Counted from the first letter of the stretch, positions 1,289 to 32,000 are shown. The stretch: 32,000 nucleotides of DNA from Acaryochloris thomasi RCC1774 (GCF_003231495.1 NZ_PQWO01000012.1:150001-182000); one strand, 5' to 3'. The notes: generated by a model not told the origin, from the sequence alone. A program made the numbers and translations.

Positions 1289-1531
1289 ATAGGTCCCCTT
1301 CGTCAATCTGTTCACCATGCCTAAAAATAATTTAAAGTCAATAATTAAAGGCTCTGTCTAGTAGTGAAGCCAACAGCTCATGGATTTAGGCGACTCAAAA
1401 GCCAGATGACAACTGCTAATATATTGCTTGTCAATTAATCAATACTGCAATCTACAGTACTATTCTATTCCTAGTGTGCACTCTAATCTTTTAAATCGCC
1501 AGCTTATGGGTGTGGAAAACACTCTTTTTAC

Positions 1532-6264: not shown

Positions 6265-6415
6265 CTTAGTTTCTGTGAGATATTTCTGACAGCTTCCTGG
6301 AAGTATACCCACATTTGTATTTTTGCCAACATTGAGAACAAGGCAGAATCGCAAAACATTGCAAACTTGCAACGCACAAATACTATTTATCCGCTAGCGC
6401 CTTGATTCTCTACCC

Positions 6416-6457
6416 AAAAAACAACGTAATAGTGCCGTAAGCCTATTACGTTGTTTT
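6416..6457 (-). terminator. Rho-independent terminator candidate downstream of the 69-aa gene
   Basis: Inverted repeat aaaacaacgtaatag / ctattacgttgtttt (about 13-15 bp stem, 10-nt loop tgccgtaagc). Read on the minus strand, the stem is followed by TTTTTT. It lies 57 nt after the stop of ORF 6514..6723. Confidence 0.5.
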
Positions 6458-6513
6458 ACGTTTCTACTTAGGTATATCGCTTTCTCAACACCCCAAAATC
6501 AAGGGCTGGGCAT

Positions 6514-6723
6514 CTACCAACAAAATCTTCCAATGCCTGCAATTGTAATACAGCGTTGAGGCTCAACAACTCGCTTGATAACATCTTGGCTTTCACTCGA
6601 ACTCTGCTCAGCCTGATCAAGCTGAGGCTGAGCTTGAACTTTCTCTGCCATCAGAATTGGGCCAGAAGCAGCAGAGAAGGTCATGGCACTGATCGCTAGG
6701 GCCAAGGAGAATTTAGTTTTCAT
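6514..6723 (-). CDS. Small secreted protein (69 aa), unknown function
   Basis: N-terminal signal peptide MKTKFSLALAISAMTFSAASGPILMA, an acidic Gln/Ser-rich middle and the C-terminus RCITIAGIGRFCW (Cys-x10-Cys-Trp). It has its own downstream hairpin terminator. Confidence 0.5.
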   Translation of the reverse strand: MKTKFSLALAISAMTFSAASGPILMAEKVQAQPQLDQAEQSSSESQDVIKRVVEPQRCITIAGIGRFCW

Positions 6724-7205
6724 GATGCTTATGAATCCTTAAGTGAATCTACTGAATTCGAACAGATTTAAGTCACTCAAAATTGTTCTGAAAATGAATT
6801 CAGAATTTATCCCCCAAGAGTTCCCCCATGTGCTAGACCAGCTAGCACTGAACGTCATGCGTAAAACTACGCAAAATGTCAGATAACTAGTTGGAATTGT
6901 ATAGTAAAAAGACTAATGTGGCATCCCCCAAACAGGTGAGATGAGATTAGTATGACCATACGTCAAAGTGCCACGTCATTGCTTAGCCTTGAGAAATGTA
7001 CAAGTTTCCCACTATTGGAAGTATTTTGACGGCGATTCTTCTATCAGGCTTTGTTGACATCCCTGTCTTTCAAGCTACGGCCTCTAGGTAGTGAAAGACA
7101 GAAGATATTGCTCTATGCGTGTGCTTGCCGCTGGAGTTGCCCTGATGTGTGGACTACGATCCAACTATAATAATCTTTGTCCTATCTCATTAAGAGTCTG
7201 CAGCC

Positions 7206-8462
7206 GTGACCGTTTCTCCCGTCTCCCCTGCCGCAACATCAAATCCAACTCAACTTCCTGATGCGCTGGGTCGATTTGGTGTATTCGGAGGCAAGTATGT
7301 TCCTGAAACCTTGATGCCTGCCCTCAGTGAGCTAGAAGAGGCGTTTGAGAAATATCGAGATGATTCTGGCTTTCAAGAGCAGCTCAACGGTCTCCTGAGA
7401 GATTATGTCGGACGGGCCAATCCGCTGTACTTCGCAGAACGTCTGACGGCTCACTATGCACGTCCCGACGGCACAGGACCACAAATTTATCTCAAGCGTG
7501 AGGATCTCAATCATACGGGTGCTCACAAGATCAACAACGCTCTGGCGCAGGTATTGCTAGCGCAACGAATGGGCAAGCAGCGCATTATTGCAGAAACAGG
7601 TGCAGGCCAACATGGCGTCGCCACCGCCACTGTCTGTGCTCGATTTGGCTTACAGTGTGTCATCTACATGGGTGTTCAAGACATGGAGCGTCAATCGCTC
7701 AACGTGTTTCGGATGCGTTTGCTAGGAGCAAAGGTCCAACCAGTAGAGGCCGGCACCGGAACGCTCAAGGATGCCACGTCAGAGGCAATTCGTGACTGGG
7801 TGACTAACGTTGAGACCACACACTACATTTTGGGTTCCGTTGCGGGTCCACACCCCTATCCGATGATGGTCCGCGATTTTCATGCGGTCATTGGTCGAGA
7901 AACACGGCAGCAGTGCCAAGAGCACTGGGGTGGATTGCCCGATATCTTGCTGGCCTGCGTCGGTGGTGGCTCCAATGCAATGGGTCTGTTCCATGAGTTT
8001 GTTAAGGACTCTTCAATCCGCATCATTGGCGTCGAGGCTGCCGGTGAAGGTATTGGCAGCGGACATCATGCCGCGACTCTCACTCAGGGACAGATTGGTG
8101 TTCTGCATGGTGCAATGAGCTATTTACTGCAGGATGATGACGGTCAAGTAGAGGAAGCGCATTCGATTAGTGCCGGGCTAGATTATCCGGGTGTCGGACC
8201 GGAGCACAGCTTTTTGAAAGATAGCGGTCGTGCAGAGTATTTCAGCGTCACCGATGCTGAGGCGATTGCAGCCTTTCAGCGCCTCTCTGAACTAGAGGGG
8301 ATTATTCCGGCCCTAGAGACCAGTCATGCGATCGCATATCTTGAAACCCTCTGTCCACAGCTAACAGGCAGCCCGCGCATCGTGATCAACTGTTCAGGCC
8401 GGGGGGATAAAGATGTACAAACCGTGGCCAAATTTCTGGAACATCTCCAGAGCGACACCTAA
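7206..8462 (+). CDS. trpB: Tryptophan synthase beta chain
   Basis: [20 protein letters not shown], the PLP-lysine motif [21 protein letters not shown] and GGGSNAMG. Full length (418 aa, GTG start). Confidence 0.97.
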
Positions 8463-8481: not shown

Positions 8482-10218
8482 TTGCAACGCTTGCAGCAGC
8501 CTAATCGATACCATCTATTACTTCTCTTGGCATCGATTGTGTTAGGGCTGGGGCTGCGGCTGATAAACCTAACCGATAAATGCCTCTGGACTGATGAGCT
8601 GGCAACCTTAGTTTTCAGCCTCGGGCACAGCTTTTTAAGTATTCCTCTCGATCAGATCATCACATCTGAGACCCTTCTGCAGCCGTTGGTCCCAGATCCT
8701 CAGCTCAACCTCGGAGGCGTCGTTGAGCATTTACTAGGGGAAAGCAACCATCCGCCCCTCTATTTTTGGCTCACGCATCTGTGGCTGCAGATGTTCCCGA
8801 CCCCAGACGGCCTCGTTTCTTTGTGGGGAGCGCGATCTCTCTCGGCCCTATTCGGCACTGCGGCGATTCCGGCCATCTTTTGCCTAGGCTATCTTGCCTT
8901 CCGCTCGCTCTGGATTGCCCAGTTAGCAGCGCTATTAATGGCGACCTCTCCCCTCGCCATTTATCTGGCTCAAGAAGCGCGTCATTACACGCTCCCGATT
9001 TTGTGGGTGATCGCTTCCCTCGCCTGTTTGATAATCGCCACCCGTGCCCTAGCCGAACGCCGTCCCTTACCCTTGTGGGTGATGCTGGTCTGGATTGTAG
9101 TCAATGGATTGGGAACAGCATCACACTATTTCTTTAGCCTGACCCTCTGCGCTGAGGGGATTGTTTTGCTCGGTTTAGCAGGTCGACAGATCCAGCAGCA
9201 GGCCCTCTCTACAGACAAAACTCTCAAAGCAAACCGTTCTTTCTGGCAAAAGCATCCACTTCGATCAACGTGGCTGCGAATTGGAGTAGTGGGCGCAGGG
9301 ACGTTGGCAAGCTTGGTGGTCTGGCTTCCTTTTCTGCAGGGCGTTCAGGATAGCGAGATCACGCAGTGGATCCATCGGGGCAATCGCGTCGGACTAGAAT
9401 GGCTCGATCCGGTTTTGCAAATCCTGGCGGGGGCGAGCACGATGCTCTACATGCTGCCCATCCAGGCGAGCAATGCGCCCCTCAGCGTGGTGTCGTTTGT
9501 GGCGCTGGTGTTGCTAGCGATTTGGACGGGCTTCAAAATTAATCAGGGACTGCGGATTTCTAGCGCCAATGGCTATGCGGTCTGGATTCTAGGTGGGTTT
9601 GTTGTCGGTGCGATCGCAACTTTTTTAATCATCACCTATGGCTTCGAGCGGGAGGTGACCAGTGCCCCGCGCTATCATTTCGTCTTCTTCCCTGCGGTCA
9701 TACTGCTGATTGCCGCTGCATTGGTCCAGCAGTGGTCGCCTTCTCGAGCTGTTTTGAAACAGACGGCCATTATTATTGTCAGCCTCAGTCTACTGGGCGC
9801 AATCACCGTCGTCAGCAACCTCGGCTATCAAAAAACCCATCGTCCCGACATCGTCGCTCAAGCCATTCGAGAAGGCCCCTCCCAACAAAGCCTGATTGTC
9901 ATCGCCCATTCAACCCACGGCCAAACAGGACGAATGATGGCCCTTGCCTGGGACTTTAAACACCGTCCCCTCCAGCCTGCGCCACTTTTTTTAATGGCCC
10001 ACATCATCGACAAGCCAGAATCAGTCCTCATTCCCCTTCAGCATTCGCTGGAACAGATATCAACCCCCATCACACTTTGGCTGCTTGAGTTCAAGGGAGT
10101 TCCCGAAGACGCACTGCAGGCAACGCTCGCTGCCCATCACTGCCAGCCTCAGCCTCAAGTCAAATCAGCCACAGACGGCTATCGATATCGCATGCATAGA
10201 TGTAGAGGTGATCAGTGA
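8482..10218 (+). CDS. Polytopic membrane glycosyltransferase, GT-C fold (GT39/ArnT-like)
   Basis: 578 aa with about 10 or more hydrophobic helices. A DE motif lies in the first loop (CLWTDELATLVF), followed by HPPLYFWLTHLW, as in the PMT_2/ArnT-like family. TTG start. Confidence 0.7.
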   Translation: MQRLQQPNRYHLLLLLASIVLGLGLRLINLTDKCLWTDELATLVFSLGHSFLSIPLDQIITSETLLQPLVPDPQLNLGGVVEHLLGESNHPPLYFWLTHLWLQMFPTPDGLVSLWGARSLSALFGTAAIPAIFCLGYLAFRSLWIAQLAALLMATSPLAIYLAQEARHYTLPILWVIASLACLIIATRALAERRPLPLWVMLVWIVVNGLGTASHYFFSLTLCAEGIVLLGLAGRQIQQQALSTDKTLKANRSFWQKHPLRSTWLRIGVVGAGTLASLVVWLPFLQGVQDSEITQWIHRGNRVGLEWLDPVLQILAGASTMLYMLPIQASNAPLSVVSFVALVLLAIWTGFKINQGLRISSANGYAVWILGGFVVGAIATFLIITYGFEREVTSAPRYHFVFFPAVILLIAAALVQQWSPSRAVLKQTAIIIVSLSLLGAITVVSNLGYQKTHRPDIVAQAIREGPSQQSLIVIAHSTHGQTGRMMALAWDFKHRPLQPAPLFLMAHIIDKPESVLIPLQHSLEQISTPITLWLLEFKGVPEDALQATLAAHHCQPQPQVKSATDGYRYRMHRCRGDQ

Positions 10219-15068: not shown

Positions 15069-16235
15069 TCAACGTACACCCGCAATCGTTCGCTGCCCCA
15101 ATTGCGTCAAAACCTGCGGCAGCACAACCGCCACCCAATCAATATCTGCTTCAGTGGTGGCGCGGCCTAGGGTCAGTCGAATGCCTGCCCTCGCTTCTGC
15201 ATCGCTATAGCCCATCGCCTTAAGAATAGGGCTAGGGGAAAGAGTTCCACTGTGGCAAGCGGACCCAGCACTAATGGCAATTCCAGCGAGGTTCATCTGC
15301 CTAACGATGGCGCGGCCACTAATGGGAGAATCACCCTGAGGCTGCAGATAGAAACTCGCATGGTGAGGCAGACGCTGCTGTCGATCTCCCGTCACGAATA
15401 GTTCAGAGATAGGTGAGAGCTGCTCAAATAAACGATCGCGCAGTTTACGCAGACGCTCAGTCTCATGGGCCATATCTTGAGCGGCCAGAGCCGCAGCCAC
15501 CCCAAACCCCACCATTGTCGGAACCGCTGGCGTTCCAGAGCGCAATCCTGCTTCTTGACCACCGCCAGTTAGCATCGGAGTGAGTGTGATGCCGGGGCGA
15601 ACATACAAGGCACCCGCACCCTGAGGACCATAGAGTTTGTGGCTTGAGAGAGAGAGTAGATCAACGGGTAATGCCTGAACATCAATTGGCAACCGCCCCG
15701 CCACCTGCACCGCATCGGTATGAAACAAAGCACCGTGATCACGCACAATACGGCCCAGCACTTCAATAGGCTGCAGAGTGCCCACCTCACTTTGCCCATA
15801 GATAATTGAGACGAGAGTCGTGTTGGGCTGTAGTGCTTTTTGCAGCTGCGCTGGGTCAATGAGTCCTTGGCGATTGACCGACAATCGAGTCACCTGCCAG
15901 CCCTGTGATTCTAGCCACTGGGCACAGTTGGAAACGGCCGAGTGTTCAATGCTTGAGATAATCAGGTGCTGCGGCGTTGTGTACTGATGGGCCACGCCCA
16001 ACAGCGCCAGATTATCGGCTTCAGTGCCGCCGGAGGTGAAGGTAAGGGTCTCAGCAGAAGCTCCGATCAGTTCAGCGACTTGGATGCGGGCTTCTTCTAG
16101 AGCTGTGGCGGACCGCTGGCCCCATTGATGCAGACTAGAGGGGTTACCCCACTGATGTTGCCAAAGATTTTGCATGGATGCGATCGCATCTTTACAGCAG
16201 GGCGTTGTAGCACCGTAGTCTAGATAAATTTGCAT
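15069..16235 (-). CDS. Cysteine desulfurase (class V aminotransferase, NifS/IscS-like)
   Basis: YLDYGATTP, FTSGGTEADNLA, the PLP-lysine motif LSSHKLYGPQGAGALYVR and the active-site loop SAGSACHSG. Confidence 0.9.
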   Translation of the reverse strand: MQIYLDYGATTPCCKDAIASMQNLWQHQWGNPSSLHQWGQRSATALEEARIQVAELIGASAETLTFTSGGTEADNLALLGVAHQYTTPQHLIISSIEHSAVSNCAQWLESQGWQVTRLSVNRQGLIDPAQLQKALQPNTTLVSIIYGQSEVGTLQPIEVLGRIVRDHGALFHTDAVQVAGRLPIDVQALPVDLLSLSSHKLYGPQGAGALYVRPGITLTPMLTGGGQEAGLRSGTPAVPTMVGFGVAAALAAQDMAHETERLRKLRDRLFEQLSPISELFVTGDRQQRLPHHASFYLQPQGDSPISGRAIVRQMNLAGIAISAGSACHSGTLSPSPILKAMGYSDAEARAGIRLTLGRATTEADIDWVAVVLPQVLTQLGQRTIAGVR

Positions 16236-21295: not shown

Positions 21296-22621
21296 ATGAA
21301 AAAAGTCTTTGTCCTAGATACCAATGTGCTGTTGCACGACCCCGCCGCAATGCATCAGTTTGAGGACAACGACGTGGTGCTGCCGATGACGATTATCGAA
21401 GAGCTTGATCGCTTCAAAAAACAGCCAGAAGAAACCGGACGCAATGCTCGTCAGGTGTCGCGCGAGCTAGACGGTCTGCGCCAGCAGGGAAATCTATTTG
21501 AGGGCATCGTCCTCGAAGGCGGCGGCAATCTTAGGGTGGCACTCTGCAACCGAGAAACCTTACAGGAACTGCCTCCAGAGCTAGAGCGCGACAGAGGGGA
21601 TAACTCTATTTTGGCAGTGGCGCTAGAGCTGCAGCGCCAGTGTAATTGTCCGTTAGTCTTGGTAAGTAAGGATACGAATCTGCGTCTGAAGGCGGATGCC
21701 CTCAGTGTGGCTGCCGAAGATTACGAAACGGACAAGGTAAATGTTGGCGATCTCTACACCGGCATCTCTGAAGTGATCGTGGATGCCGAGTCCATCAACA
21801 ATTTGTTTAAGCAGGGTGGCGTGGATTTAGACGGTCCCTTCTTACCCAACCAGAGCCTAACGCTGGTGGACTCCGTCAATCCAGCTCACACAGCCTTGGC
21901 CGTGGTCGACGGCCATAGCGGTCAGGTGCAGCCCCTCGCTAAAATTCCCCACGCCGGCATCTCACAAGTGATTCCACGCAACCGAGAGCAGCGCTTTGCG
22001 ATTGAGCTACTGCTGCGCGATTCGATTTCTTTGCTCACGCTGGTAGGCAAGGCAGGCACCGGGAAGACCTTACTTGCGATCGCAGCCGGTCTGCAGCAGG
22101 TGGCCGATGAACAGCGCTACAGTCGCCTATTAATTGCTCGCCCCAATATTCCCATGGGGCGTGACTTAGGCTATCTGCCCGGAGATATTAAAGAGAAGCT
22201 AACCCCGTGGATGCAGCCCCTCTATGACAACTTTGATTTGATCTTTGGCACCCAAGACACCACTGGCCAACCCAGCCACTGGCGGCGTGGCCACGAAGAA
22301 CTCATGGAGCAGGGTTTACTGCAAATTGAACCGCTGACCTACATTCGTGGCCGCACGATTCCCAAACAGTTCCTAATCGTAGATGAAGCTCAAAATCTAA
22401 CCCCCCATGAAGTCAAAACAATTCTGACCCGTGCGGGCGAGGGAACAAAGGTTGTGCTGACCGGCGACCCTGAACAGATTGACAACCCCTATGTCGATGC
22501 AGCCAGCAATGGTCTCACCTACGTCGTCGAAAGATTTAAAAAGGAGCCACTCGCGGGGCATGTGACGCTGCATCATGGCGAGCGCTCAATGTTAGCAGAA
22601 CGAGCCGCCGCGCTCCTGTAG
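21296..22621 (+). CDS. PIN-domain PhoH-family ATPase (YlaK-like)
   Basis: N-terminal PIN signature [14 protein letters not shown]...[12 protein letters not shown], Walker [12 protein letters not shown], Walker [12 protein letters not shown] and GDPEQID. Confidence 0.9.
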
Positions 22622-22626
22622 CGTGA

Positions 22627-22848
22627 TTACGAATAACCTAAAAGCTCAGAAGAAATAAGTTCTTGGAGGTTTTCGTCATCAAACGCTTGGAGAGACATCG
22701 CCAGACCGATGTGTACCAAGTTGAGGCGCTGTTTCACAGCAGGATCAAGATCTTCAGCAGCTTCTTCAGCACACTCGAGAATAGTTTGGGCCATTTGCAG
22801 ATTATCTTGGGTAACGGCTAGGGCTTCTGCTAATAGGGACTCAAGCAT
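22627..22848 (-). CDS. Small acidic helical protein, hypothetical
   Basis: 73-aa ORF whose composition looks coding. Convergent with the PhoH-like gene, 5 nt between the stop codons. No family recognised. Confidence 0.45.
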   Translation of the reverse strand: MLESLLAEALAVTQDNLQMAQTILECAEEAAEDLDPAVKQRLNLVHIGLAMSLQAFDDENLQELISSELLGYS

Positions 22849-23180
22849 GTCGATAGGCTCTCTTGTGAATGTTGTTAGACGGTCTTGGTGACCATATTTC
22901 TATGTTCGGGCGAATCACTAAAAAAAAATACCGGACGATTACTGAATTTTTGAGCGCATTTAACCGACAGCAGCTAGATAAGCCTGTAATTATGCTGAGA
23001 TGCTGATAGAAAAACCTTAAGGAAATACAAAGATAGCGCCACACAGCAATCTTACAAAAGCAATAAAGAGGCATTCATATCTGTAAAGTTGCGTAGAGAA
23101 ACTCTATGTTTTAGTGACTGTCAATTGCTAACAAAATGCTCTCAAAAGCTATGTCGCGTCAGACAAGGAAAACCTTAGGT

Positions 23181-23468
23181 TCAGGCAATATCATCTGAAC
23201 GGCGTTTCCATGCACCAAAGCGTTCGGCATAGAAGTCTAGTATTTTTTCCAGCTGCTCCTGATCGATCTTTGCAAGACTTTCAGGATGACGAATTCGCAG
23301 CCAACCTACCTGACTTTGCATATAATCAAATTCTTGGGCATCCTGCGGCAGCAGCTCGGTCTCAACGCTTTCAACCTGACCTAGATGAGCCGCAATTTCA
23401 CTGTAAACGGCCAGCGGTAGTTCAGAATATTGAATATCGTATTGTTGCAACGTCACGGATAAGCTCAA
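23181..23468 (-). CDS. Hypothetical acidic protein (95 aa), apparently co-transcribed with the LuxR-type gene
   Basis: The ORF starts 9 nt after the upstream stop, on the same strand. No family recognised. Confidence 0.55.
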   Translation of the reverse strand: MSLSVTLQQYDIQYSELPLAVYSEIAAHLGQVESVETELLPQDAQEFDYMQSQVGWLRIRHPESLAKIDQEQLEKILDFYAERFGAWKRRSDDIA

Positions 23469-23477
23469 TAACTAAGA

Positions 23478-23771
23478 CTAGGACTCAACTCGCGAAGACT
23501 CAGAAGCCTCCATTGAACCATTCGGCAGCAAGCAGCAGTTTACATTATCGAGGCAAACCTTTCCCCACTCTAAGGCCCAGCGAACAAGGGCCACTCTATT
23601 CTCAGTCCCTGTCTTGGTGAGAATATTGCTGATGTGATTGTCTACGGTGCGCTTACTGATCTCTAAGCGCTGCGAAATCTCCTCATTTTTGAGCCCAGAG
23701 GACACTAACTCGATCACCTGCACCTCACGCTCAGATAGGGCATGACCTGTCTGTAGTTCTCCCGCGCTCAT
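23478..23771 (-). CDS. Small LuxR/GerE-type HTH transcriptional regulator (DNA-binding domain only, PedR-like architecture)
   Basis: LSEREVQVIELVSSGLKNEEISQRLEISKRTVDNHISNILTKTGTENRVALVRWA is a canonical GerE/LuxR C-terminal HTH. There is no receiver or ligand domain. The C-terminal tail carries Cys residues (KVCLDNVNCCLL). Confidence 0.85.
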   Translation of the reverse strand: MSAGELQTGHALSEREVQVIELVSSGLKNEEISQRLEISKRTVDNHISNILTKTGTENRVALVRWALEWGKVCLDNVNCCLLPNGSMEASESSRVES

Positions 23772-23913
23772 ATGTTTACTCTAACCGTGTAGATCTACCT
23801 ACTAATTCTAGACCAATTGTCAAAGTTGGGTCGTGTCTTAAGGTCGTCATAAGATCCTCAGCCTGGGACTTGCCGTCTTAGTTGACGCCTAACTCGACTG
23901 ACTCCTTTGCGTT

Positions 23914-25521
23914 TCAAGAAACTTGGCCAGACGTAACGGGTGCGATCGCATCTAAGACCAAATCAGGGTGGTCACCATTCACCTGATGCAGATTCCAGCT
24001 GTTCTTAAACAGCAGCACTGGCCGGTCCCAGCTATCTTTGACCGTAATTGCATTGAAGATACGTCCCACCTTCTCTAACGCGGGCCATCCATCCTTCACC
24101 CAGCGGGCCACCGTATAGGGCAGCAGCTCTAGGCGAGTTTCAACCCCGTATTCATTTTGCAGCCGGAACTGGACAACTTCGATCTGAAGCTGACCCACCG
24201 CCGCCAGAATCGGATCGCGCTTAGACTCATCAGCAGAGTACATAATCTGCACCGCCCCTTCTTCTCTCAGCTCGGAGATTCCCTTCTGGAACTGCTTGAA
24301 CTTAGAGGGATTTGGGTTCTTGAGATAGGCAAATAGTTCCGGTGAGAAGCAGGGAATACCGTCGTACTCAAGTTTTTTACCTTGAAAGATAGTGTCGCCG
24401 ATAGCAAACATGCCTGGATTGTTGAGGCCAATCACGTCCCCAGGATAGGCTTCGTCAATTGAAGCTCGACCTTGGGCAAATAGTTTTTGAGGGCGGGAAA
24501 GACGAATCGTTTTGCCGGTGCGAGCATGGCTGACGGTCATGTCTTTTTCAAACTTACCGGAGCAAACGCGAATGAAAGCGACGCGATCACGATGCTTCGG
24601 GTCCATGTTGGCCTGCAGCTTGAACACGAACCCTGAAAAGTCTTCATAGGTGGGTTCAATATCACCCAACGTACTGTGATAAGCACAGGGCTTCAAAGCG
24701 TAGTCCATGAAGGCTTCTAGGAATAGCTCCACGCCAAAGTTAGTCATGGCACTACCGAAGAAGATCGGCGTCATCAAACCCGCATGAACCATTTCCATAT
24801 CTAGCTCAGGACCGAGTTCCTCGATCACCTCTAGCTCGTCTTTGAACTGGAAGTAGAGATCTTGATCTAGTAAATCTTCAATCTTCGGATCACCGATATC
24901 GACAATGGTTGTTTTCGCTTCCCGCCGACCGTGACCGCTGCGCTCAAACAGATGAATTTTGCGACTGCGGCGATCAAAAACACCCTTAAAGCGATCGCCC
25001 ATCCCAATCGGCCAGTTCACGGCGTAGGTCTGCAGCTCTAATTCTTGCTCAATCTCGTCCAGTAGCTCCAGCGGCTCTCGGCCGGGTCGGTCGAGCTTGT
25101 TGATGAAGGTAAAGATGGGAAGCGATCGCAACTTACACACTTCAAATAGCTTGCGCGTTTGTGGTTCCAAACCCTTGGCCGCATCTACTAGCATCACAGC
25201 ATTGTCCGCCGCCGCTAAGGTTCGGTAGGTATCTTCGCTGAAGTCTTGGTGCCCCGGCGTATCCAACAGATTAATCTGGCAATCCTGATAGGCAAACTGC
25301 AGCACCGTCGAAGTAATGGAGATGCCGCGCTGCTGCTCCATTTCCATCCAGTCAGAGGTCGCATGACGCTGCGCTCGCCGAGCCTTCACGGCTCCAGCTT
25401 CATGAATCGCGCCTCCATAAAGCAAGAGCTTTTCCGTTAGCGTTGTCTTACCCGCGTCCGGGTGCGAAATAATCGCAAAGTTACGGCGACTTTCTACGGC
25501 TGTAGCGAGTTCAGAGGACAT
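23914..25521 (-). CDS. prfC: Peptide chain release factor 3
   Basis: [32 protein letters not shown]......ATSDWME.E.QRGISI.S..LQF and [14 protein letters not shown]. The tracked ORF begins at TTG 25650. I prefer ATG at 25521 ([15 protein letters not shown]...), giving 535 aa. Confidence 0.95.
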
Positions 25522-25928
25522 GCACAAAAAGGAAGGATCAGTGACTTCATTATAGAGTGGGCCTTTGACTTTCAGGGAGCCTAAGGCAAATCCCCACGAT
25601 TTCACCTTTCGAGCATCTCGCTCATCCTCTGCTAACCCAATATCTGACAATTACAAGATAAGAACACGAACATCATCGGCCGTATATACGACAAGCTTAT
25701 TTTGATTAAGGAAAAATTAATTTTCCCGAAATAAAAAACTTCAAAACCTTAGGTCGTTACGACTGTTATAAAAGTTATTTGTTTTGCCAGATATAAATAT
25801 TGCGCTCTCCAAGATTTAAAGACAGAATGAGGATGCGAGATGCTCTATTTTTAATGAATAATAAGAAAGCATTCGGACATGCGGTGGGGCAACGTTCAGA
25901 TCAAGTTTTAGAACAGGGGAACCCAATA

Positions 25929-26570
25929 ATGAGAATAATCAGCCCAGGGCTATTATTGGCTCTAGCAAGCGTGCTGGCCGTGGCCACATCCGTCTCTGCA
26001 GAAGACAATAAGGCCGCTTCATTAGCCCCCAATGGTTCCATTCAGCCTGCAGGGGGGCAGCTTGGTGGCGCTCCCCTTCCTCCGCCGATTAATCATCGTG
26101 CATTTCAAAAGCCAGAACTTTTAGACAACTATGGGTTGATCAAGGGCATTCAAAATGACAAGGTCTCTGTTCGGCTTTTAAATGGAGATATCAAGACGTA
26201 TCTTCTCGCTTCAAACACTGTAGGCGCTAAGCTAAGGCGCGGCGGTCTCGTTGGATTTAGGACAAACATCAAGGGAGAAATTACCAGGCTTTCACCCCCT
26301 CAAGTTCGCAAGGTTTATACCGGCACTTTAATCATTGTCGACGGTCAGAAGATCGGCATGGTGACGCCTCAGGGTGACCGCTTCATCACCACATTAGCCA
26401 AGAATAAGATTGCTCGGATGGGTTTAGCTCCCGGTCAACCCATTAAAATCACCCAATATCGAGGAACGTGGGCCACGAAGGTGTGTCAGCCAGGAGCACT
26501 CAATGATGATGATTCTTTCCCGATCCTGGCGGAGCAAGGGCGTGGCACTATTATTCCTCAAGAACAGTAG
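25929..26570 (+). CDS. Secreted protein, short paralog of an unrecognised C-terminal domain family
   Basis: The tracked ORF starts at 25800. ATG at 25929 gives a clean signal peptide (MRIISPGLLLALASVLAVATSVSA). A Pro/Gly linker follows, then a ~130-aa domain (26118-~26510) that I align by hand at about 70% identity to the C-terminus of the 27113 gene. Confidence 0.75.
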   Translation: MRIISPGLLLALASVLAVATSVSAEDNKAASLAPNGSIQPAGGQLGGAPLPPPINHRAFQKPELLDNYGLIKGIQNDKVSVRLLNGDIKTYLLASNTVGAKLRRGGLVGFRTNIKGEITRLSPPQVRKVYTGTLIIVDGQKIGMVTPQGDRFITTLAKNKIARMGLAPGQPIKITQYRGTWATKVCQPGALNDDDSFPILAEQGRGTIIPQEQ

Positions 26571-26661
26571 TCATTGATTAGAGTTCTGGCTTGATTCAGC
26601 GTTAATGATTTTTGAGACTTCCGCTATGCAAGCATGGTGGAAATCTCAGTTTTAGAGGTTG

Positions 26662-26689
26662 TTATGGAGTTGCGATCGCAATTCCATAA
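26662..26689. repeat. 28-nt near-perfect palindrome centred on a HIP1 site
   Basis: ttatggaGttgcgatcgcaaTtccataa. All positions pair except one G-T wobble. It lies in the 542-bp gap between the two paralogous genes. Confidence 0.6.
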
Positions 26690-27112
26690 ACAACACTCTG
26701 CACCAAGCAATATCGCCCATCACCTATATCATTCTCAAAATCGAAAATGAGAAATCATTCACCTATACAAAGCAGCTTGTTTTTAACAGCCCTAAATTAC
26801 CCCTTAGAAAGGCTCATAAAGGGCTGTTTCCGATCTTAGATTGCAGTCAATACAACATCCGTCTTCTAGAGCCGTCTTCGCAGTGAGCCTGTAAGTCATT
26901 TTCTTCTTTAAATCAGAGAGGGAAGCGGACTCTCGGATGCATGGTATGCAGGCAGAAATTAAATATCGGCAACATATACTACACTCAAAGAAAAATATAG
27001 TAGAATAGACCAGCGGCCTAAGACCAAGTCAATCAGCATCTAGAGCTTAGTCAGCGCCTTTAAAATATGCCGGGGGGCAGTTAAGAAAAAGCCTTAGATT
27101 CAGGTATCCCCC

Positions 27113-28579
27113 ATGAACAAAAGAATTTACTATACAGCTCTCACACTTGCGATCACGGGAATCTGTACAGCTGCAACAGCTGTCGCCGCCGCAGACGAAA
27201 GTATTACCACGACTTCTCCATCTCCTATAGATTCTTACGCCGATCAGAATCTTCAGGGAGAGATACTTGTAGCCTCTGCTCCTCTATCAGATGCTGAGAC
27301 AACAGTTACAAGCTACTCTAAGCAGCCTAAGCATTTAGAGGGACCTAATATTCCTCCCCGAGTCTTAGCTTCTCCTGATCTCCAACCTCTCGCAAGACTA
27401 GATATTGAAAAGACGCCTATTACAAATGGAGTAGTAGAAGTTTCTACGTCAAACATTGACTTCTCAGCAACGCTAACCTTCAAACCCTCTGCACAGACAA
27501 TCGCTGAGATCCAGGCACTAGAATCAAAGACATCTCACAGCTTTGACAATAGTGCATCTTTACTGGCTCTGGCTTCAGAAACTGTTGAACCAGCCAACGC
27601 AGGCATTAGGTCACAGGTAGTTGAAACACCAGAGCCTGTTGTACAGAACATCAACTTCCCAACAGCTCCAACATTCACTCCTTCCGCACAGACAATCGCT
27701 GAAATTCAAGCTCCAGAGTTAAAGACATCTCACAGCTTTGATAGCAGTGCATCTTTACTGGCTTTGGCCTCAGAAATCGTTGAAGAAACTAATACTGAGT
27801 CCGAGGTGCTGAAAGATGAAAAAACGGAAGCTGTTGTCTCAGACATTAACTTACCAATAGTTCCAACTTCCTCCGCCATGGCACAAGCCATTCCTGAATT
27901 TCAAGCACCCGCAGTTGAAGCTGACCAATCTGTTGAACATGGTGCTGCATTACTGAGACCTTTAGCACCAGGCCTTACCGCAGAACCTAAACTAGAAAAT
28001 TCAGCCACCATTCAAAGGAATAGTGTTGCAGATGCAGTAGTAGCGCCAGCGCCAAAACAAACACCTACGCTACAAAGCAATCTTGATAGGGCCCCCATAA
28101 CTCCAAAGTCATCAGAAATTTTGGATAACTATGGATTAGTCAACTCTATCAAAGGCAATAAAGTCTCGGTTCGTCTCTTAAACGGAAAGAATAAAACCTA
28201 CTTGCTAGCTTCTAATTCCGCAGGGAGTCAAATCAGGCGTGGCGGCTTAATGGGTTTTAACACGGATCGCCGAGGTAGAATTACGCGTCTCGCGCCTCCT
28301 AAGATCAAAAAGATTTACCAAGGCACTCTAGTTATCGTGGAAGGGACAAAAATTGGCATGGTGACACCTGAAGGAGAACGTTTTATCACAACGCTTTCGA
28401 AGAGAAAGATTGCTCACATGGGCCTAGCGCCTGGACAGCCGATCAAGATCACTCAATACAGTGGAACTTGGGCCACAAAAGTTTGCCGTCCGGGAGTATT
28501 AAGCGATCGCCAGATTTCATCTGATGCGATGCAGAGGCAAAGAAATTTCTTGAGGGGTGAAACCTCACCAAAATCTTAA
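27113..28579 (+). CDS. Secreted protein, long paralog: repeat-containing N-region plus the shared C-terminal domain
   Basis: 488 aa with signal peptide MNKRIYYTALTLAITGICTAATAVAAA. The Ser/Thr/Ala/Glu/Pro-rich region contains 65-aa repeats. The C-terminal domain (28118-~28510) is ILDNYGLVNSIKGNKVSVRLLNGKNKTYLLASN...GQPIKITQYSGTWATKVCRPG. Confidence 0.8.
   Translation: MNKRIYYTALTLAITGICTAATAVAAADESITTTSPSPIDSYADQNLQGEILVASAPLSDAETTVTSYSKQPKHLEGPNIPPRVLASPDLQPLARLDIEKTPITNGVVEVSTSNIDFSATLTFKPSAQTIAEIQALESKTSHSFDNSASLLALASETVEPANAGIRSQVVETPEPVVQNINFPTAPTFTPSAQTIAEIQAPELKTSHSFDSSASLLALASEIVEETNTESEVLKDEKTEAVVSDINLPIVPTSSAMAQAIPEFQAPAVEADQSVEHGAALLRPLAPGLTAEPKLENSATIQRNSVADAVVAPAPKQTPTLQSNLDRAPITPKSSEILDNYGLVNSIKGNKVSVRLLNGKNKTYLLASNSAGSQIRRGGLMGFNTDRRGRITRLAPPKIKKIYQGTLVIVEGTKIGMVTPEGERFITTLSKRKIAHMGLAPGQPIKITQYSGTWATKVCRPGVLSDRQISSDAMQRQRNFLRGETSPKS
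27461..27850 (+). repeat. Two good copies plus one degenerate copy of an in-frame 195-nt (65-aa) repeat
   Basis: Copy 1 is NIDFSATLTFKPSAQTIAEIQALESKTSHSFDNSASLLALASETVE. Copy 2 is NINFPTAPTFTPSAQTIAEIQAPELKTSHSFDSSASLLALASEIVE. The core gcacagacaatcgctga occurs at 27491 and 27686. A degenerate third unit (DINLPIVPTSSAMAQAIPEFQAP...) begins near 27842 and extends beyond the stated end. The boundaries are approximate. Confidence 0.7.
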
Positions 28580-28610
28580 GAAATAAAGACCTTAGAGGAC
28601 GCTCAGAAAA

Positions 28611-28645
28611 TCAGCCTAGGAAGTCGGAAAGGCTTTCTAGGCTGA
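28611..28645 (+). terminator. Hairpin downstream of the 27113..28579 gene (possible terminator)
   Basis: tcagcctag / ctaggctga form a 9-bp stem (extendable with one mismatch) around a loop of about 13-17 nt. It starts 32 nt after the stop. No T-tract follows, so the call is weak. Confidence 0.3.
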
Positions 28646-29048
28646 CCTATTAAAGAGCAGCAGAGAATCTTTTCTATCACCTCTTTTGATCTTTCAATAG
28701 CTAAGTGGCCCTAGAGATAAAAAACAGCAAAATAACGGCAAAAAGTTTATTTAGGATACAGAATTACCTGATCTTCACCGATGCAGATAAAACAGTAGAT
28801 CAAGGCTGGCTAAAAAAGAATGCCTGAGTTGAATTAATCTCCTGAAGCCGGCTCAGATCGCTCTATAGACTTGATATTTCGTCGTTGGTCGATAATCTCT
28901 GTAAGTATAGAAATGACAAAAAAATAATTATAGACACGAAAAAAGCCTGCGCAGACAAGATTTTTACTGTTCTGAAAATCAAGAAAACTTAAGTAAATAG
29001 GCCAAGGAAAGGAAATTCGTATCTTCTTTCTGTATTAATTAACTTGTC

Positions 29049-29450
29049 TTACTTCCCCTCGTATTCAAAGGATTTAATAACGGTAAAATCGTAGGTTACT
29101 TTTCCCTTTGGCAAATCATACTGAAAATCTGAATAGATTTCATTGTAAGCCGCAGCGTACTGTGGCAAAAACAAGTAGTGATAGAATCCTTGGGGAGGGA
29201 AGAAACTAGAGCCAAATCCATTGAGGCCAAACCCAAACCCTCCGGCAGCAAATACATTTCCGGAAAATCCACCCGCTGTAAATGCATTACCGGAAAATCC
29301 ACCTACAGAATTTGCAGGTAGGAAAAATGCCTCGGCAGGCGTTGCCTGAGGAGAAGTAGACTGACCAAAGATAATTTGCGCGTTGGCCCCATTTGTAAAC
29401 GATGCCAAGGCCACCGATAGAGTTGTTAACGCAAGTACAGGAACTTTCAT
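29049..29450 (-). CDS. Secreted Gly/Phe-repeat protein, unknown function
   Basis: Signal peptide MKVPVLALTTLSVALASFTNGANA. Three 10-aa units (GGFSGNAFTA, GGFSGNVFAA, GGFGFGLNGF) are encoded by 30-nt tandem repeats; the minus-strand core appears on the plus strand as ccggaaaatccacc at 29260 and 29290. The C-terminal part is rich in aromatic residues. Confidence 0.65.
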   Translation of the reverse strand: MKVPVLALTTLSVALASFTNGANAQIIFGQSTSPQATPAEAFFLPANSVGGFSGNAFTAGGFSGNVFAAGGFGFGLNGFGSSFFPPQGFYHYLFLPQYAAAYNEIYSDFQYDLPKGKVTYDFTVIKSFEYEGK

Positions 29451-29694
29451 GGGACAAGCCTCACAGCAGAACAGATAGAATAAAGGGCAGAATTATCTTT
29501 TCGTTTAGTAGCTTAATTTATGTAAAAAAGATATAAAGAACATGAAATAATGCCTTTGAGAAGCTGCATCCCTCCCACAAGATATAGCTCCTTTAAAGAT
29601 ATTTGGGCCATCTGTGCTTTTCGTCTACTACAACCACGACTGGCACATTGATCAATGTATTCCCAAAGAAAACTACTCAGCGATTGAGCCGAGC

Positions 29695-30141
29695 CTATCT
29701 GCCTCGCGGTCCTACCTGTGGCTCTGGACTACTCCGTCGAGGTCCGCGATCTCCACTGGCACCCGTTGTGACATTGGTTGTATGCACAAAATCAGCATAA
29801 TCAAAAGATTCACTGAATTCGTAGACGGTGGTTGTTAGCCTTTCTCCACGCTCTCTCGTTATAGAGGTATTTATAGTGCCGTTATCAGAAACGGTTGTAG
29901 TTGTGGCACCATTGGCCCGATTAGAGGTATGACTGGAGTCACGTTGAGAATCAGTGGTGATAGAGAAGCCATTTTCACTCGTTTGTTCCCTTGTCACAAC
30001 ACGGTTGTTACGCTCTGCATGCCCCTGTGGGCTGACAACGAAGTTCATCACAGTTGTGCCAGAAGCATTCTGTGCCAGGCTTGGCAATACAAATGTCAAG
30101 AGCCAAAAAGGTGAAAGCACAAGAACATATTTGGGTTTCAT
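29695..30141 (-). CDS. Small secreted beta-rich protein, divergent member of the local three-gene family
   Basis: The tracked ORF starts at 30195. ATG at 30141 gives signal peptide MKPKYVLVLSPFWLLTFVLPSLAQ. The segment TTTVYEFSESFDYADFVHTTNVTTG aligns with ESYEFTGFQESHRVTAG of the 31161 gene. This protein continues ASGDRGPRRSSPEPQVGPRGR rather than ending FDF. Confidence 0.55.
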   Translation of the reverse strand: MKPKYVLVLSPFWLLTFVLPSLAQNASGTTVMNFVVSPQGHAERNNRVVTREQTSENGFSITTDSQRDSSHTSNRANGATTTTVSDNGTINTSITRERGERLTTTVYEFSESFDYADFVHTTNVTTGASGDRGPRRSSPEPQVGPRGR

Positions 30142-30258
30142 ACTAACAATTCTCGCTTTTCGACAGGGTAGGCAGCTACCATTTATAACCATCATCTCTA
30201 TTCAAGAGTAAAGAAACATCCCTAACGACAGCTCAACTTAAGCCAAGGATGATTCAGA

Positions 30259-31092
30259 CTACTGCCGTGCTTGAACACTTGATTCCTGAGTGCTAGCCGT
30301 TGCGGGTCGCTGCAGCTGTGCCGGCTGAACTGGTCGCTGCGGCTGAGGTACGGCCTGCTGTTGAACAGGTTGAATGGGCTGGCCTGACTGCTGCTGTACA
30401 AAATTTTGATTCGTAGCAGACGGCTCATTGATAAGCTGCTCAGCTTGCTGTCGGGAGACGGGCTGGACTTGTTGCTGGCCCGCTTGCTGCTGTCGAGAAA
30501 CAGGTTGCGCTTGCTGTTGACCCAGTTGTGGCTGACGGCCTCGGGCATTACGATTATTCTGCTGTGGCGCAGCACCAAATGGGCTGGCACCAGGCTGCGG
30601 AACGGTGACAGTTGGGCACTCAAGGCCAGCAAGCTGATTAAGATCTTCGTAGCTAATCTTGATTCCAGATTTAATCATTTTGGAATAGTTACTAATGACT
30701 AGCAAACAAGTTTCCAAAGACGCTCTGGCTAATTGTGTCTTTGCATATGCTCGGCAGGTATCTACACCAAATGACTTGGTATAGGTAAATGAGCCACCAA
30801 TAGAACCTGTATCGAAGGGACCGATTCCATTACCAAAAGCAGATAGCGCAATACCAGAGCTGGAGCAGTCAGCGATACCATTACCAACAACACTTCTGCC
30901 TAGAGGGAATGAATTCACTTGTGTATTAACAAGCGATCCCTGCTGGTTTAGATCAACGACAGGATTCGCCGTTGAGTTTGCATTGTTGGGAGCATCAATA
31001 TTGTTTGTGGTAGCCTGTGCAGACACTTTCCCTGCAGTACACAATAGCAAGCCAACAACTGAAGCACCCGCCATTAAATGACGATAATTCAT
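30259..31092 (-). CDS. Secreted protein: Cys-containing N-domain plus Gln/Pro-rich C-terminal tail
   Basis: AGGAG SD and signal peptide MNYRHLMAGASVVGLLLCTAGKVSAQA. The ~135-aa domain has 4 Cys. The ~110-aa Q/P-rich tail contains two 14-aa repeats, GQQQAQPVSRQQQA and GQQQVQPVSRQQAE (30439-30522). Confidence 0.7.
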   Translation of the reverse strand: MNYRHLMAGASVVGLLLCTAGKVSAQATTNNIDAPNNANSTANPVVDLNQQGSLVNTQVNSFPLGRSVVGNGIADCSSSGIALSAFGNGIGPFDTGSIGGSFTYTKSFGVDTCRAYAKTQLARASLETCLLVISNYSKMIKSGIKISYEDLNQLAGLECPTVTVPQPGASPFGAAPQQNNRNARGRQPQLGQQQAQPVSRQQQAGQQQVQPVSRQQAEQLINEPSATNQNFVQQQSGQPIQPVQQQAVPQPQRPVQPAQLQRPATASTQESSVQARQ

Positions 31093-31160
31093 TTCATGTT
31101 CTCCTAGGCCAACGATAGGGGCATTAATAAATTTTTGCCCCCCAAATTTCTAAGTGCGGA

Positions 31161-31568
31161 TTAAAAGTCAAACCCGGCTGTAACTCTGTGACTTTCCTGG
31201 AAACCAGTAAACTCATAAGACTCCTGTACACGAACCGTTGTGTTCTTAAGTACAGTGCCTTGCTCCCTGGAATAACTTCTGGATGTAACGTCAAAGTAGG
31301 TGTCTTCTTGGACGTTGCGGCCATCTTCGACGTAGGTAATTGAAGTTTTACCTCGCTCACGCTTTACCGCAAAGGCATCAGCTTCGCGCTCGCCATTATA
31401 AACTTCTCTAACATTGAGCCTAGTTTCTGCCTTGCCATTTGTGATGACCCGCCGACTTTGGCTATTCCCAACATAAGCACTGCCTGCTATTGCTGGCAGT
31501 GAAGCTACAAGCCAAGAGAAACAGATAAGAGGGAGGAATCTACGGCATTTCATTTTAAACACCATCAA
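31161..31568 (-). CDS. Small secreted beta-rich protein ending ...HRVTAGFDF
   Basis: Signal-like N-terminus (M)KCRRFLPLICFSWLVASLPAIAGSA. The start could be 31568 or 31553. The ~105-aa mature part has alternating polar/hydrophobic strand-like segments and a C-terminal Phe. It is a paralog of the 31699 gene. Confidence 0.65.
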   Translation of the reverse strand: MMVFKMKCRRFLPLICFSWLVASLPAIAGSAYVGNSQSRRVITNGKAETRLNVREVYNGEREADAFAVKRERGKTSITYVEDGRNVQEDTYFDVTSRSYSREQGTVLKNTTVRVQESYEFTGFQESHRVTAGFDF

Positions 31569-31698
31569 GTTATCAAAACCATCGGGGTGTCACTAAAATG
31601 CAATCTAGTTTGCAAGAATTTACCCCGTACGACTTGTAGGTTAAGCCTCACTGCTCTCAAAGCAAAAAGGCTTAACCCATGAGAGAGAAATACGAAAA

Positions 31699-32000
31699 CT
31701 AGAAGTCGAAACCAGAAGTCACGCGGTGAGTCTTGTCGAAGCCAGAGAAGTCGTAGGACTCATGGACTGCAACATCAGTTGTATTTTTGAAACGACCGTG
31801 CTCACTAGACCAGCTGCTAACACTAATATCAGCGACATCAACTTCTGAGAAATTAGTCTCACGCCAAGAGCCAGCAACATCACCCTTCTCAGTGTAATCA
31901 GTTGTTGTTACGCTCCACTCATTCTTCACCGCATCGGAGCCGGCTGAACGAGTCCCTTTATAGACCTCATGCACCTTAACCTTAGTATCTGAATGGCCGT
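31699..32000 (-). CDS. Small secreted beta-rich protein ending ...HRVTSGFDF, 5' end beyond the window
   Basis: The tracked ORF starts at GTG 31974, but the frame stays open to position 32000 (GHSDTKVKVHEVYKG...). That extension aligns with NGKAETRLNVREVYNG of the 31161 paralog, so the true start lies outside the window. Confidence 0.65.
   Translation of the reverse strand, partial: GHSDTKVKVHEVYKGTRSAGSDAVKNEWSVTTTDYTEKGDVAGSWRETNFSEVDVADISVSSWSSEHGRFKNTTDVAVHESYDFSGFDKTHRVTSGFDF

Follow-up and report, generated by a model that had tools for sequence, protein, structure and literature searches.

Genes and protein families of the block

We analysed a window of 32,000 nucleotides from the cyanobacterium Acaryochloris thomasi RCC1774 (NZ_PQWO01000012.1:150001-182000), in which a block to the right of prfC (positions 25651-32000) holds seven genes, here called g1 to g7, for exported proteins. 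An all-against-all BLAST comparison of the window proteins with those of relatives, whose loci and assemblies carry the handles L001-L028, sorted the seven products into four groups, families A, B, C and D. None of the seven had a consistent match in Pfam, NCBIfam, PADLOC or PHROGs, and the profiles of the four families had no match among the chain sequences of PDB. A previous sequence-only reading of the same DNA had found no family that it could name for any of these proteins, and the lack of Pfam and NCBIfam matches bears this out. The same reading assigned a signal peptide to all seven genes. In g1 to g6 an n-region, a hydrophobic core and an AxA-type cleavage site make up a Sec signal peptide, while the N-terminus of g7 lies beyond the end of the window, so that the statement holds visibly for six of the seven; the orthologues of g7 do carry a signal peptide, among them the L004 gene at 15748-16164, to which g7 is 77% identical. 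A Tat signal was rejected, since the RR pair of g6 is not conserved in its paralogues, as was a lipoprotein signal, since there is no lipobox and the Cys in the signal peptide of family D lies in the hydrophobic core ahead of the AxA site. The features of PEP-CTERM proteins (C-terminal PEP motif, transmembrane helix and basic tail) are absent from all seven block proteins.

Family A comprises the two genes on the plus strand. The first, g1 (25929-26570, an open reading frame (ORF) of 213 aa), encodes a signal peptide and a variable linker of 40 aa, which lead into a conserved domain of about 125 aa; one Cys close to the C-terminus is conserved as well. Its paralogue g2 (27113-28579, 488 aa) has a signal peptide and a long N-terminal region rich in Ser, Ala, Thr and Pro, followed by the same C-terminal domain, which is 71% identical between the two proteins across 131 aa. 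The N-terminal region of g2 contains two repeats of 65 aa (195 nt each; DNA 27452-27784) with the motif SHSFDxSASLLALASE, and orthologues of g2 were found only in the closest relatives, L004 and L008. Scanning one genome per species revealed family A in 14 species, and the A domain has 11 homologous clusters among 5.8 billion. The UniRef entry of the Acaryochloris marina orthologue, AM1_2746, is labelled "DUF5666 domain-containing". The best score of the Pfam model DUF5666 (PF18914), in one of the ten A members scanned, was an E-value of 0.17 (12.7 bits, where the cut-off is 27), and g1 and g2 gave nothing. A paralogous subfamily, A', ending in ..PVRGLW, occurs in eight species of Acaryochloridaceae and Thermosynechococcaceae (L016-L023), where its gene lies between a divergent Wzz plus P-loop (Wzc-like) polysaccharide co-polymerase and a PEP-CTERM protein, in an exopolysaccharide/exosortase context (for example L018 6826-11254 and L023 7062-11408); these neighbours are the only proteins in which PEP-CTERM features were seen.

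The remaining five genes are on the minus strand. Family B is represented by g3 (29049-29450, 133 aa). Behind their signal peptide the mature B proteins measure 70-110 aa, of which about 23% are aromatic (F/Y/W). P..GFYH is an invariant motif of the family, which also has F-x-Y at the C-terminus. Within g3, a pair of 30-nt repeats (29235-29294) encodes GGFSGNxF, a G/F-rich insert seen only in the window and in L004. Orthologues of B are present in L001, L002, L004, L009, L012, three Acaryochloris genomes, L026 and L028.

Family C has two subtypes. Subtype C1 is encoded by g4 (29695-30141, 148 aa, with the start at 30141 picked to agree with the orthologues), and subtype C2 by g6 (31161-31565, 130-134 aa) and a second paralogue, g7 (31699 to beyond 32000), of which the C-terminal 99 aa are visible in a frame open to 32000. 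The sequence-only reading had noticed two local duplications, and both were confirmed: g1 and g2 share a domain, and g4, g6 and g7 form one family. The mature C proteins comprise about 105-125 aa with 25-29% Ser+Thr and a grand average of hydropathy (GRAVY) of -0.80 to -1.00. Both g4 (GRAVY -1.00, Thr/Ser-rich) and g6 (GRAVY -0.93, ending in ESYEFTGFQESHRVTAGFDF) encode a signal peptide and a hydrophilic, beta-rich protein. The C1 gene always sits between D and B, and C2 is present in one to four copies per locus. Conservation in C2 is highest at the two ends of the mature protein, SSYVENSY at the N-terminus and HRVTSGFDF at the C-terminus. The C superfamily retains an aromatic residue at the C-terminus throughout; most of its members, and B, end in F or Y after an alternating pattern (..SFSVDY, ..SGFDF), a feature that is not specific to outer-membrane proteins. 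The C profile retrieved 30 representatives (clusters at 50% identity) among 1.84 billion, one of them a spurious ankyrin protein. A word-indexed homologue search gave two proteins with g6 alone and 12 with an alignment as the query, and a metagenome scan with C2 and with D found nothing. Pfam searches with every member of the C alignment gave no consistent match; the Saf-pilin model (Saf-Nte_pilin) scored 21.3 bits against a cut-off of 25 in one of 19 members, overlapping the signal peptide, and this sub-threshold score is a lead at most.

The single gene of family D, g5 (30259-31092, 277 aa), encodes a signal peptide and a highly conserved domain, about 140 aa long, in which four Cys are invariant. 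A Q/P-rich low-complexity tail of variable length follows, which is short or absent in L028. The mature N-terminus is highly conserved, and no other family of the block is as well conserved between lineages: hmmsearch gave E-values of 4e-83 to 2e-86 for D in Lyngbya, L026 and L028. No member of the D alignment matched Pfam, and no PDB sequence was matched. D holds two GNG-type motifs, VGNGIA and FGNGIG, which loosely recall curlin repeats. A crude secondary structure estimate for D from propensities and hydrophobic moments was uninformative. We considered B or D as divergent C proteins and rejected this, as profile-profile comparison (hhalign) revealed neither a B-C nor a D-C link.

Gene order, composition and sequence evolution

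A synteny comparison had been proposed in the sequence-only reading. In related Thermosynechococcaceae assemblies the block does follow prfC, and lies between prfC and argB with the same genes in the same order. L001 and L011 read GerE, prfC, A, B, C1, D, three copies of C2, argB and trmD. L004 and L010 carry phoH and, further on, GerE, prfC, A, A2, B, C1, D and three copies of C2 up to the contig end; the contigs end after prfC and A in L007, and after prfC, A and A2 in L008. L009 reads A, B, C1, D, four copies of C2, argB and trmD. The same block with the same argB flank occurs in L002, with an M20 peptidase gene at the left instead of prfC. The block ends at argB in L001, L002 and L009, and L004 has one further C2 after the counterpart of g7. 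On the strength of this synteny, the block of A. thomasi should continue for one or two C2 genes beyond the window and then end at argB.

Read on the minus strand, the window shows C2, C2, D, C1 and B, with the A genes inverted relative to the rest. More distant lineages show the same succession. Through a distant C1 member we found a locus in Lyngbya confervoides BDU141951, a strain that its genome announcement describes as filamentous with sheaths (PMC4358390). Here five genes without Pfam matches, flanked by rtcB and the suf operon, are arranged as C2-D-C1-B-A on one strand; 10-92 bp separate D, C1, B and A from one another, and about 315 bp lie ahead of D. The products were recognized by hmmsearch as C2 (141 aa, E 1e-36), D (260 aa, E 4e-83), C1 (135 aa, E 1e-9) and A (222 aa, E 3e-28); the B-like protein (115 aa) is marginal against the B profile (E 0.07), and its assignment leans on size, aromatic composition and position. 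In L026, a Logan assembly, argB is followed by C2-D-C1-B. The ENA scaffold L028 carries C2-D-C1-B-A-C2-D-C1-B. Directly behind this string lies a gene (6651-8258) for an RTX-like repeat protein, which spans 536 aa or more and runs off the scaffold; we take its abundant GGxGxD-type repeats to resemble RTX calcium-binding repeats. Acaryochloris marina MBIC11017 (AM1_2746, AM1_2745) and two Acaryochloris metagenome-assembled genomes have A then B on the same strand, with no C or D. Near the A. marina A-B pair (L015 4182-7349) there is also a protein of 1055 aa with a long pentapeptide-repeat tail (ADLSS/ANLSS), unrelated to the cassette. Between distant lineages the identity is about 35% for A, about 25% for C1 and about 75% for D. 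All named sources of homologues are cyanobacteria, with products labelled "hypothetical", and we found nothing relevant in the literature on AM1_2745 and AM1_2746 or on cyanobacterial exoproteomes.

Judged from these arrangements, the ancestral order is C2-D-C1-B, usually followed by A. In A. thomasi, C2 and A have each been duplicated and the A genes inverted. The fixed order of four unrelated families across divergent lineages is our strongest evidence that the products work together. We regard it as probable that the block is a conserved cassette of co-functioning exported proteins, and not a recent island.

The sequence-only reading had described a change in composition to the right of prfC, and had asked for windowed G+C and codon statistics. 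A sliding-window profile gave 44.7% G+C over 25651-32000 against 51.1% over 1-25650, which establishes the shift; the 38-42% estimated earlier is too low, as one-kb windows reach 40.3-48.5% in the block and 43.7-56.3% in the flanks. The difference between the block and the rest of the window is visible in the pooled coding sequences (47.1% against 52.1%), in the G+C content of third codon positions (GC3; 40.2% against 52.9%) and in the intergenic DNA (38.8% against 44.5%), which accounts for 29% of the length of the block and 13% of the remainder. Synonymous codon usage was only mildly atypical and near the host range: when scored per codon under housekeeping usage, the block genes have log-likelihoods of -1.14 to -1.29 and the other genes of -1.04 to -1.29. 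The gaps had been read as widened to about 240-540 bp, against mostly under 150 bp in the housekeeping part. Those in the block (278, 542, 469, 244, 117, 68 and 145 bp) do have a larger median, 244 bp against 113 bp in the housekeeping part, yet the latter has gaps of 833, 465, 421 and 332 bp too. The earlier observation thus mostly holds: it was real in kind and overstated in degree. The low G+C of the block recurs in every relative (42.5-46.8% against 49-52.5% in the flanks), including around the Acaryochloris A-B pair, and the shift is therefore a standing property of the locus.

Selection was assessed by comparing the window with L004, which among the relatives with the entire block is the closest, at a synonymous divergence (dS) of 0.7-1.8. 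The ratio of non-synonymous to synonymous divergence (dN/dS) was 0.08-0.28 for the block genes, with g2 at the maximum of 0.28, and 0.01-0.04 for prfC, phoH and the gene of the GerE-type regulator. These values indicate that the block genes are real and under purifying selection, and that they evolve 5-10 times faster than their neighbours at non-synonymous sites. Accordingly, the block proteins are 50-82% identical to those of L004, L007 and L008, where the neighbours are 90-98% identical, and 39-70% identical to those of L001, where the neighbours are at 91%. Copy number and internal repeats also differ between genomes.

One of two possibilities offered by the sequence-only reading was an old acquired island. 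If the block had been acquired horizontally, with foreign DNA behind the AT shift and genes without a joint function in the host, this would account for a G+C content lower by 6.5 points and a GC3 lower by 13 points, for the longer spacers, for the differing genomic contexts of the cassette in L002, Lyngbya, L026 and L028, for the tandem duplicate in L028 and for a patchy and rare distribution. We consider this very improbable. The window has no tRNA gene and the block no ORF matching integrase or transposase families, in agreement with the sequence-only reading, and there are no flanking repeats. The choice of synonymous codons falls in or close to the range of the host, all genes are under purifying selection, and every homologue found is cyanobacterial. 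The position between prfC and argB is shared by several species whose neighbouring genes differ at a dS above 1. An acquired island would combine atypical composition with a site that is empty in close relatives, and here the relatives examined share both the site (apart from the contexts just named) and the same AT shift, the latter seen in Acaryochloris as well. A recent island is not supported, and the AT shift and long spacers are standing properties of a fast-evolving locus rather than the scar of a recent transfer. The block may be an old or portable module, as the cassette occurs in several genomic contexts. The other possibility had been a lineage-specific surface or matrix locus. Synteny, export and fast evolution uphold the lineage-specific part, and the location at the cell surface or in a matrix is one that we infer from the sequences. 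That the genes make up a cassette of fixed order which distant cyanobacteria share goes beyond the earlier reading.

The spacers of the block contain further conserved or structured elements. The divergent spacer between prfC and g1 (25522-25928; the likely start of prfC is the ATG at 25521, giving 535 aa as called in relatives) includes a 5' leader of g1 (25761-25928) that aligns at 71-76% with L008, L007 and L004 and partially with L001, although dS between these genomes is about 1 or more, near saturation. Two motifs in this leader, TGTTATAAAAGTTATTT (about 25769-25790) and TGCGGTGGGG (25880-25889), are invariant or nearly so in seven loci. In five of the seven A loci TGCGGTGGGG precedes the start codon by about 45 nt, with one substitution in L004 and in L001, and TGTTATAAAAGTTATTT is placed farther upstream of g1. 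TGCGGTGGGG occurs once in the window, which chance could give for one short motif. A six-pair RNA helix in the leader (GGTGGGG with ACCC just before the ATG) was rejected, as there was no covariation. On the minus strand, an inverted repeat directly downstream of the g7 stop codon forms a stem-loop with a 17-bp stem and a 5-nt loop (31639-31677), and a terminator-like hairpin directly follows the g4 stop codon (29675-29694). These hairpins may give rise to differential transcript levels within the string of genes from g7 to g3. Promoter and terminator scans gave nothing above shuffled expectation, and Rfam had no match in 22500-32000. A palindrome in the spacer between g1 and g2 (26662-26689) contains GCGATCGC, which we take to be the HIP1 motif, common in many cyanobacterial genomes and fitting native DNA.

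Elsewhere in the window there is a second stretch of low G+C, at 5000-7500 (44-47%). Three adjacent genes on the minus strand span 551-6372 and encode a DUF928 protein (551-1318), a TPR+CHAT-domain protein (1532-4138) and a TPS-domain protein (4132-6372). The last of these, a two-partner-secretion gene, has a GC3 of 0.38 and is followed by a spacer of 833 bp, so the window has a second surface- or secretion-related stretch that is AT-shifted. Between phoH and prfC (22627-23771, minus strand) lie small genes of 73 aa, 95 aa and 97 aa, the last a GerE/LuxR-type regulator and the first two without a family assignment; L004, L007 and L008 have them in the same order at 81-97% identity, and L001 shares this in part. 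An ORF of 578 aa (8482-10218, plus strand) has a host-like composition (GC3 0.60) and no Pfam match at E <= 0.001.

Predicted folds and comparison with known systems

The structure search proposed in the sequence-only reading was run with AlphaFold2 models of A and C, and only the former matched a known fold class. The A domain is modelled as all-beta, with two consecutive small five-stranded beta-barrels and a predicted local distance difference test score (pLDDT) of about 75-87 in the core (residues 65-190). Its best Foldseek match was the tandem-OB interdomain of Mpa/ARC (probability 1.0, E 5e-5), followed in the ranking by ModG and EF-P. The template-modelling (TM) scores against Mpa/ARC are 0.27-0.40, with a root-mean-square deviation of 7-8 Å, and values this low support only the general fold class. 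The model thus supports the placing of family A in the OB/small-barrel fold class, and the match does not imply a function. The tandem small beta-barrels are a likeness to Mpa/ARC, ModG/TOBE and DUF5666 proteins; Mpa, ModG and EF-P are cytoplasmic, whereas A is secreted. The C model, which is of low confidence, consists of four strands of 17-21 residues, making up two long hairpins, without helices. Each predicted strand has one semi-hydrophobic face, and both faces are rich in T, S, E, K and R. The two conserved termini of C2 fall outside the confident fold, the mature N-terminus and the last 13 residues being unplaced.

We did not find a described system to which the cassette can be assigned. 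The closest known analogue, in architecture only, is the cyanobacterial tubular (CT) pilus of Microcystis aeruginosa, built from the pilin MrpC (BH695_0841; PDB 9BTQ), which was found in 2025 by cryo-electron microscopy and not by homology (PMC12397347). The CT pilin is a Ser/Thr-rich protein of about 12 kDa with a signal peptide, and forms two long beta-hairpins in continuous antiparallel sheets; its gene adjoins a pilin-like paralogue and genes of beta-rich surface proteins, the pilus is confined to cyanobacteria, its biogenesis machinery is unknown and its fold belongs to a structurally "dark" cluster (PMC12397347). Two long hairpins are likewise predicted in the C model, and the paralogues C1 and C2 lie in one cluster. 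By contrast, the profiles of C (two profiles), D and B matched no pilus protein among the PDB sequences at E-values up to 10, a negative that is limited by the fact that 9BTQ is expected, rather than confirmed, to be in that sequence set. 9BTQ was not among the top 50 Foldseek matches of the low-confidence C model, and C does not have the C-terminal helix-turn-helix of the CT pilin. The window, L001, L002, L004, L009, L024, L026 and L028 have no gene for an O-GlcNAc transferase, FkbM methyltransferase, adhesin or porin-like protein as found in the CT cluster, and that cluster in turn has no equivalent of D, B or A. On the sequence comparisons, membership of C in the CT-pilus family is not supported.

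Several small Sec-exported proteins are also clustered in the functional-amyloid operons of curli (csgBAC/csgDEFG) and Fap, where they are a major subunit, a minor or nucleator paralogue and small accessories, and where Q/N/G/S/T-rich sequences assemble outside the cell. No protein or alignment member matched the curlin repeat (PF07012) or Fap in Pfam and no locus has a gene for an outer-membrane channel of the CsgG or FapF type. In addition, C is without internal strand-loop-strand repeats, and a hairpin meander is predicted rather than a beta-solenoid. Chaperone-usher and donor-strand fibres, such as those of TasA and Bacillus Ena, share with the cassette several small paralogous, secreted, beta-rich subunits per locus, and the idea of donor strands, in which terminal strands complete a neighbouring subunit, fits the conserved and unplaced termini of C2. 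Unlike those systems, no locus encodes a PapD-like chaperone, an usher or a SipW-type peptidase, and the C model has no Ig-like or jellyroll fold. For curli/Fap, chaperone-usher pili, outer-membrane barrels and PEP-CTERM substrates alike, one or more of the defining features tested are absent here.

A candidate extracytoplasmic assembly

Taken as a whole, the explanation that we favour, tentatively, is that the four orphan families form a cyanobacteria-specific exported cassette whose products make up an extracytoplasmic beta-sheet assembly. A polymer or lattice rich in beta-sheet, in the cell envelope or at the surface, would be built from C proteins as its repeating units, with C2, the paralogue of variable copy number, as the major subunit and the single-copy C1 as a minor variant. 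Contacts between subunits would be made by the conserved terminal segments, N- and C-terminal, that the monomer fold leaves out. For D, whose domain would be disulfide-bonded and whose Q/P-rich tail would be flexible, we propose the part of a conserved nucleator, cap or anchor, and for B that of an accessory factor. A would work in the periplasm or at the surface, either as a binding protein, perhaps for glycans, or as a chaperone.

That the cassette builds a structural polymer or fibre is possible, if on balance somewhat doubtful. The idea is suggested by the predicted long hairpins of C, by its extreme hydrophilicity (25-29% Ser+Thr) combined with one semi-hydrophobic face per strand, by the conserved C2 termini outside the monomer fold and by the C-terminal aromatic residue conserved in the C superfamily. 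Fast evolution and repeat expansion are typical of exposed proteins, and A' sits in a polysaccharide co-polymerase/PEP-CTERM context in eight species. Stem-loops follow g7 and g4, and stem-loops after major-subunit genes are known from pilus operons. The CT pilus, finally, gives a precedent. It is tempting to speculate that the cassette represents a new class of cyanobacterial filament or lattice, extracellular or in the envelope, made of beta-hairpin subunits that assemble after Sec export without known dedicated machinery, and thus a second cyanobacterial surface polymer with a dark fold next to the CT pilus; in this specific form we consider the idea rather unlikely.

A number of points weigh against an assembly of this kind. 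Enzymes, transporters, regulators and known assembly factors are all missing from the cassette. It has no gene for a secretion channel, an usher, a sortase, a glycosyltransferase, a protease or a chaperone of known type, and its genes do not explain how export could proceed past the periplasm or into the thylakoid lumen. The C model has a mean pLDDT of 58.7 (70-79 in the core) from 13 sequences, Foldseek found nothing significant with it, and its long hairpins may be an AlphaFold2 default for beta-prone sequences with little information. Several genomes have A alone, without the rest of the cassette, and L026 has no adjacent A, which may make it doubtful that A is an obligate part of the system. 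The family is also rare, and rarity fits a niche function of any kind.

Two other roles for the exported proteins have to be considered. They might be soluble stress proteins of the periplasm or the thylakoid lumen, hydrophilic, beta-rich, co-regulated and non-polymerising, that protect or buffer the cell, for example against cold, desiccation or metals. This would be in keeping with signal peptides of the Sec type only, with no further sorting signal or export machinery, with the very hydrophilic C proteins and their many charged residues (GRAVY -0.8 to -1.0), and with the OB-like barrels of A, which elsewhere are typical of binders of small ligands or oligosaccharides and which had ModG/TOBE among their Foldseek and weak Pfam matches. 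The names of some assemblies with A' look like sample codes, which might point to cold freshwater. We nevertheless find it unlikely, as the strict order of four unrelated families fits physical partners better, no stress-related genes are linked to the cassette, and both the conserved termini outside the C fold and the multiple copies of C2 would be left unexplained. Alternatively C, and perhaps B, could be outer-membrane proteins that form an oligomeric beta-barrel via the beta-barrel assembly machinery (BAM), each subunit contributing four long strands, with D spanning the periplasm through its Q/P-rich tail. The four strands of 17-21 residues in the C model and the C-terminal aromatic residue after an alternating pattern, which resembles a beta-signal, fit this arrangement, as do weak, in all cases non-significant, Foldseek matches to the hairpins of perforin-2, the membrane attack complex and gasdermin; TonB-like proteins provide known examples of P/Q-rich linkers across the periplasm. 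At a GRAVY of about -0.9, however, neither strand face is hydrophobic enough for lipid contact, no outer-membrane protein family was matched in Pfam or NCBIfam, and the D tail is short or absent in L028, so a role in spanning the periplasm is not conserved. A barrel embedded in lipid was rejected on the hydrophilicity of C, and we consider this second role improbable.

Whichever of these roles applies, distant cyanobacteria share a fixed order of four families without annotation in any library tested. Even with products that have no structural role, the cassette would be a clear case of a conserved multi-gene module missed entirely by homology-based annotation. The surfaces of cyanobacteria govern aggregation, buoyancy, the formation of biofilms and mats, and resistance to grazing and phages, and to the best of our knowledge very few protein appendages have been described in these organisms. 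The locus of A. thomasi and its relatives offers a testable candidate for another cyanobacterial envelope or surface structure.

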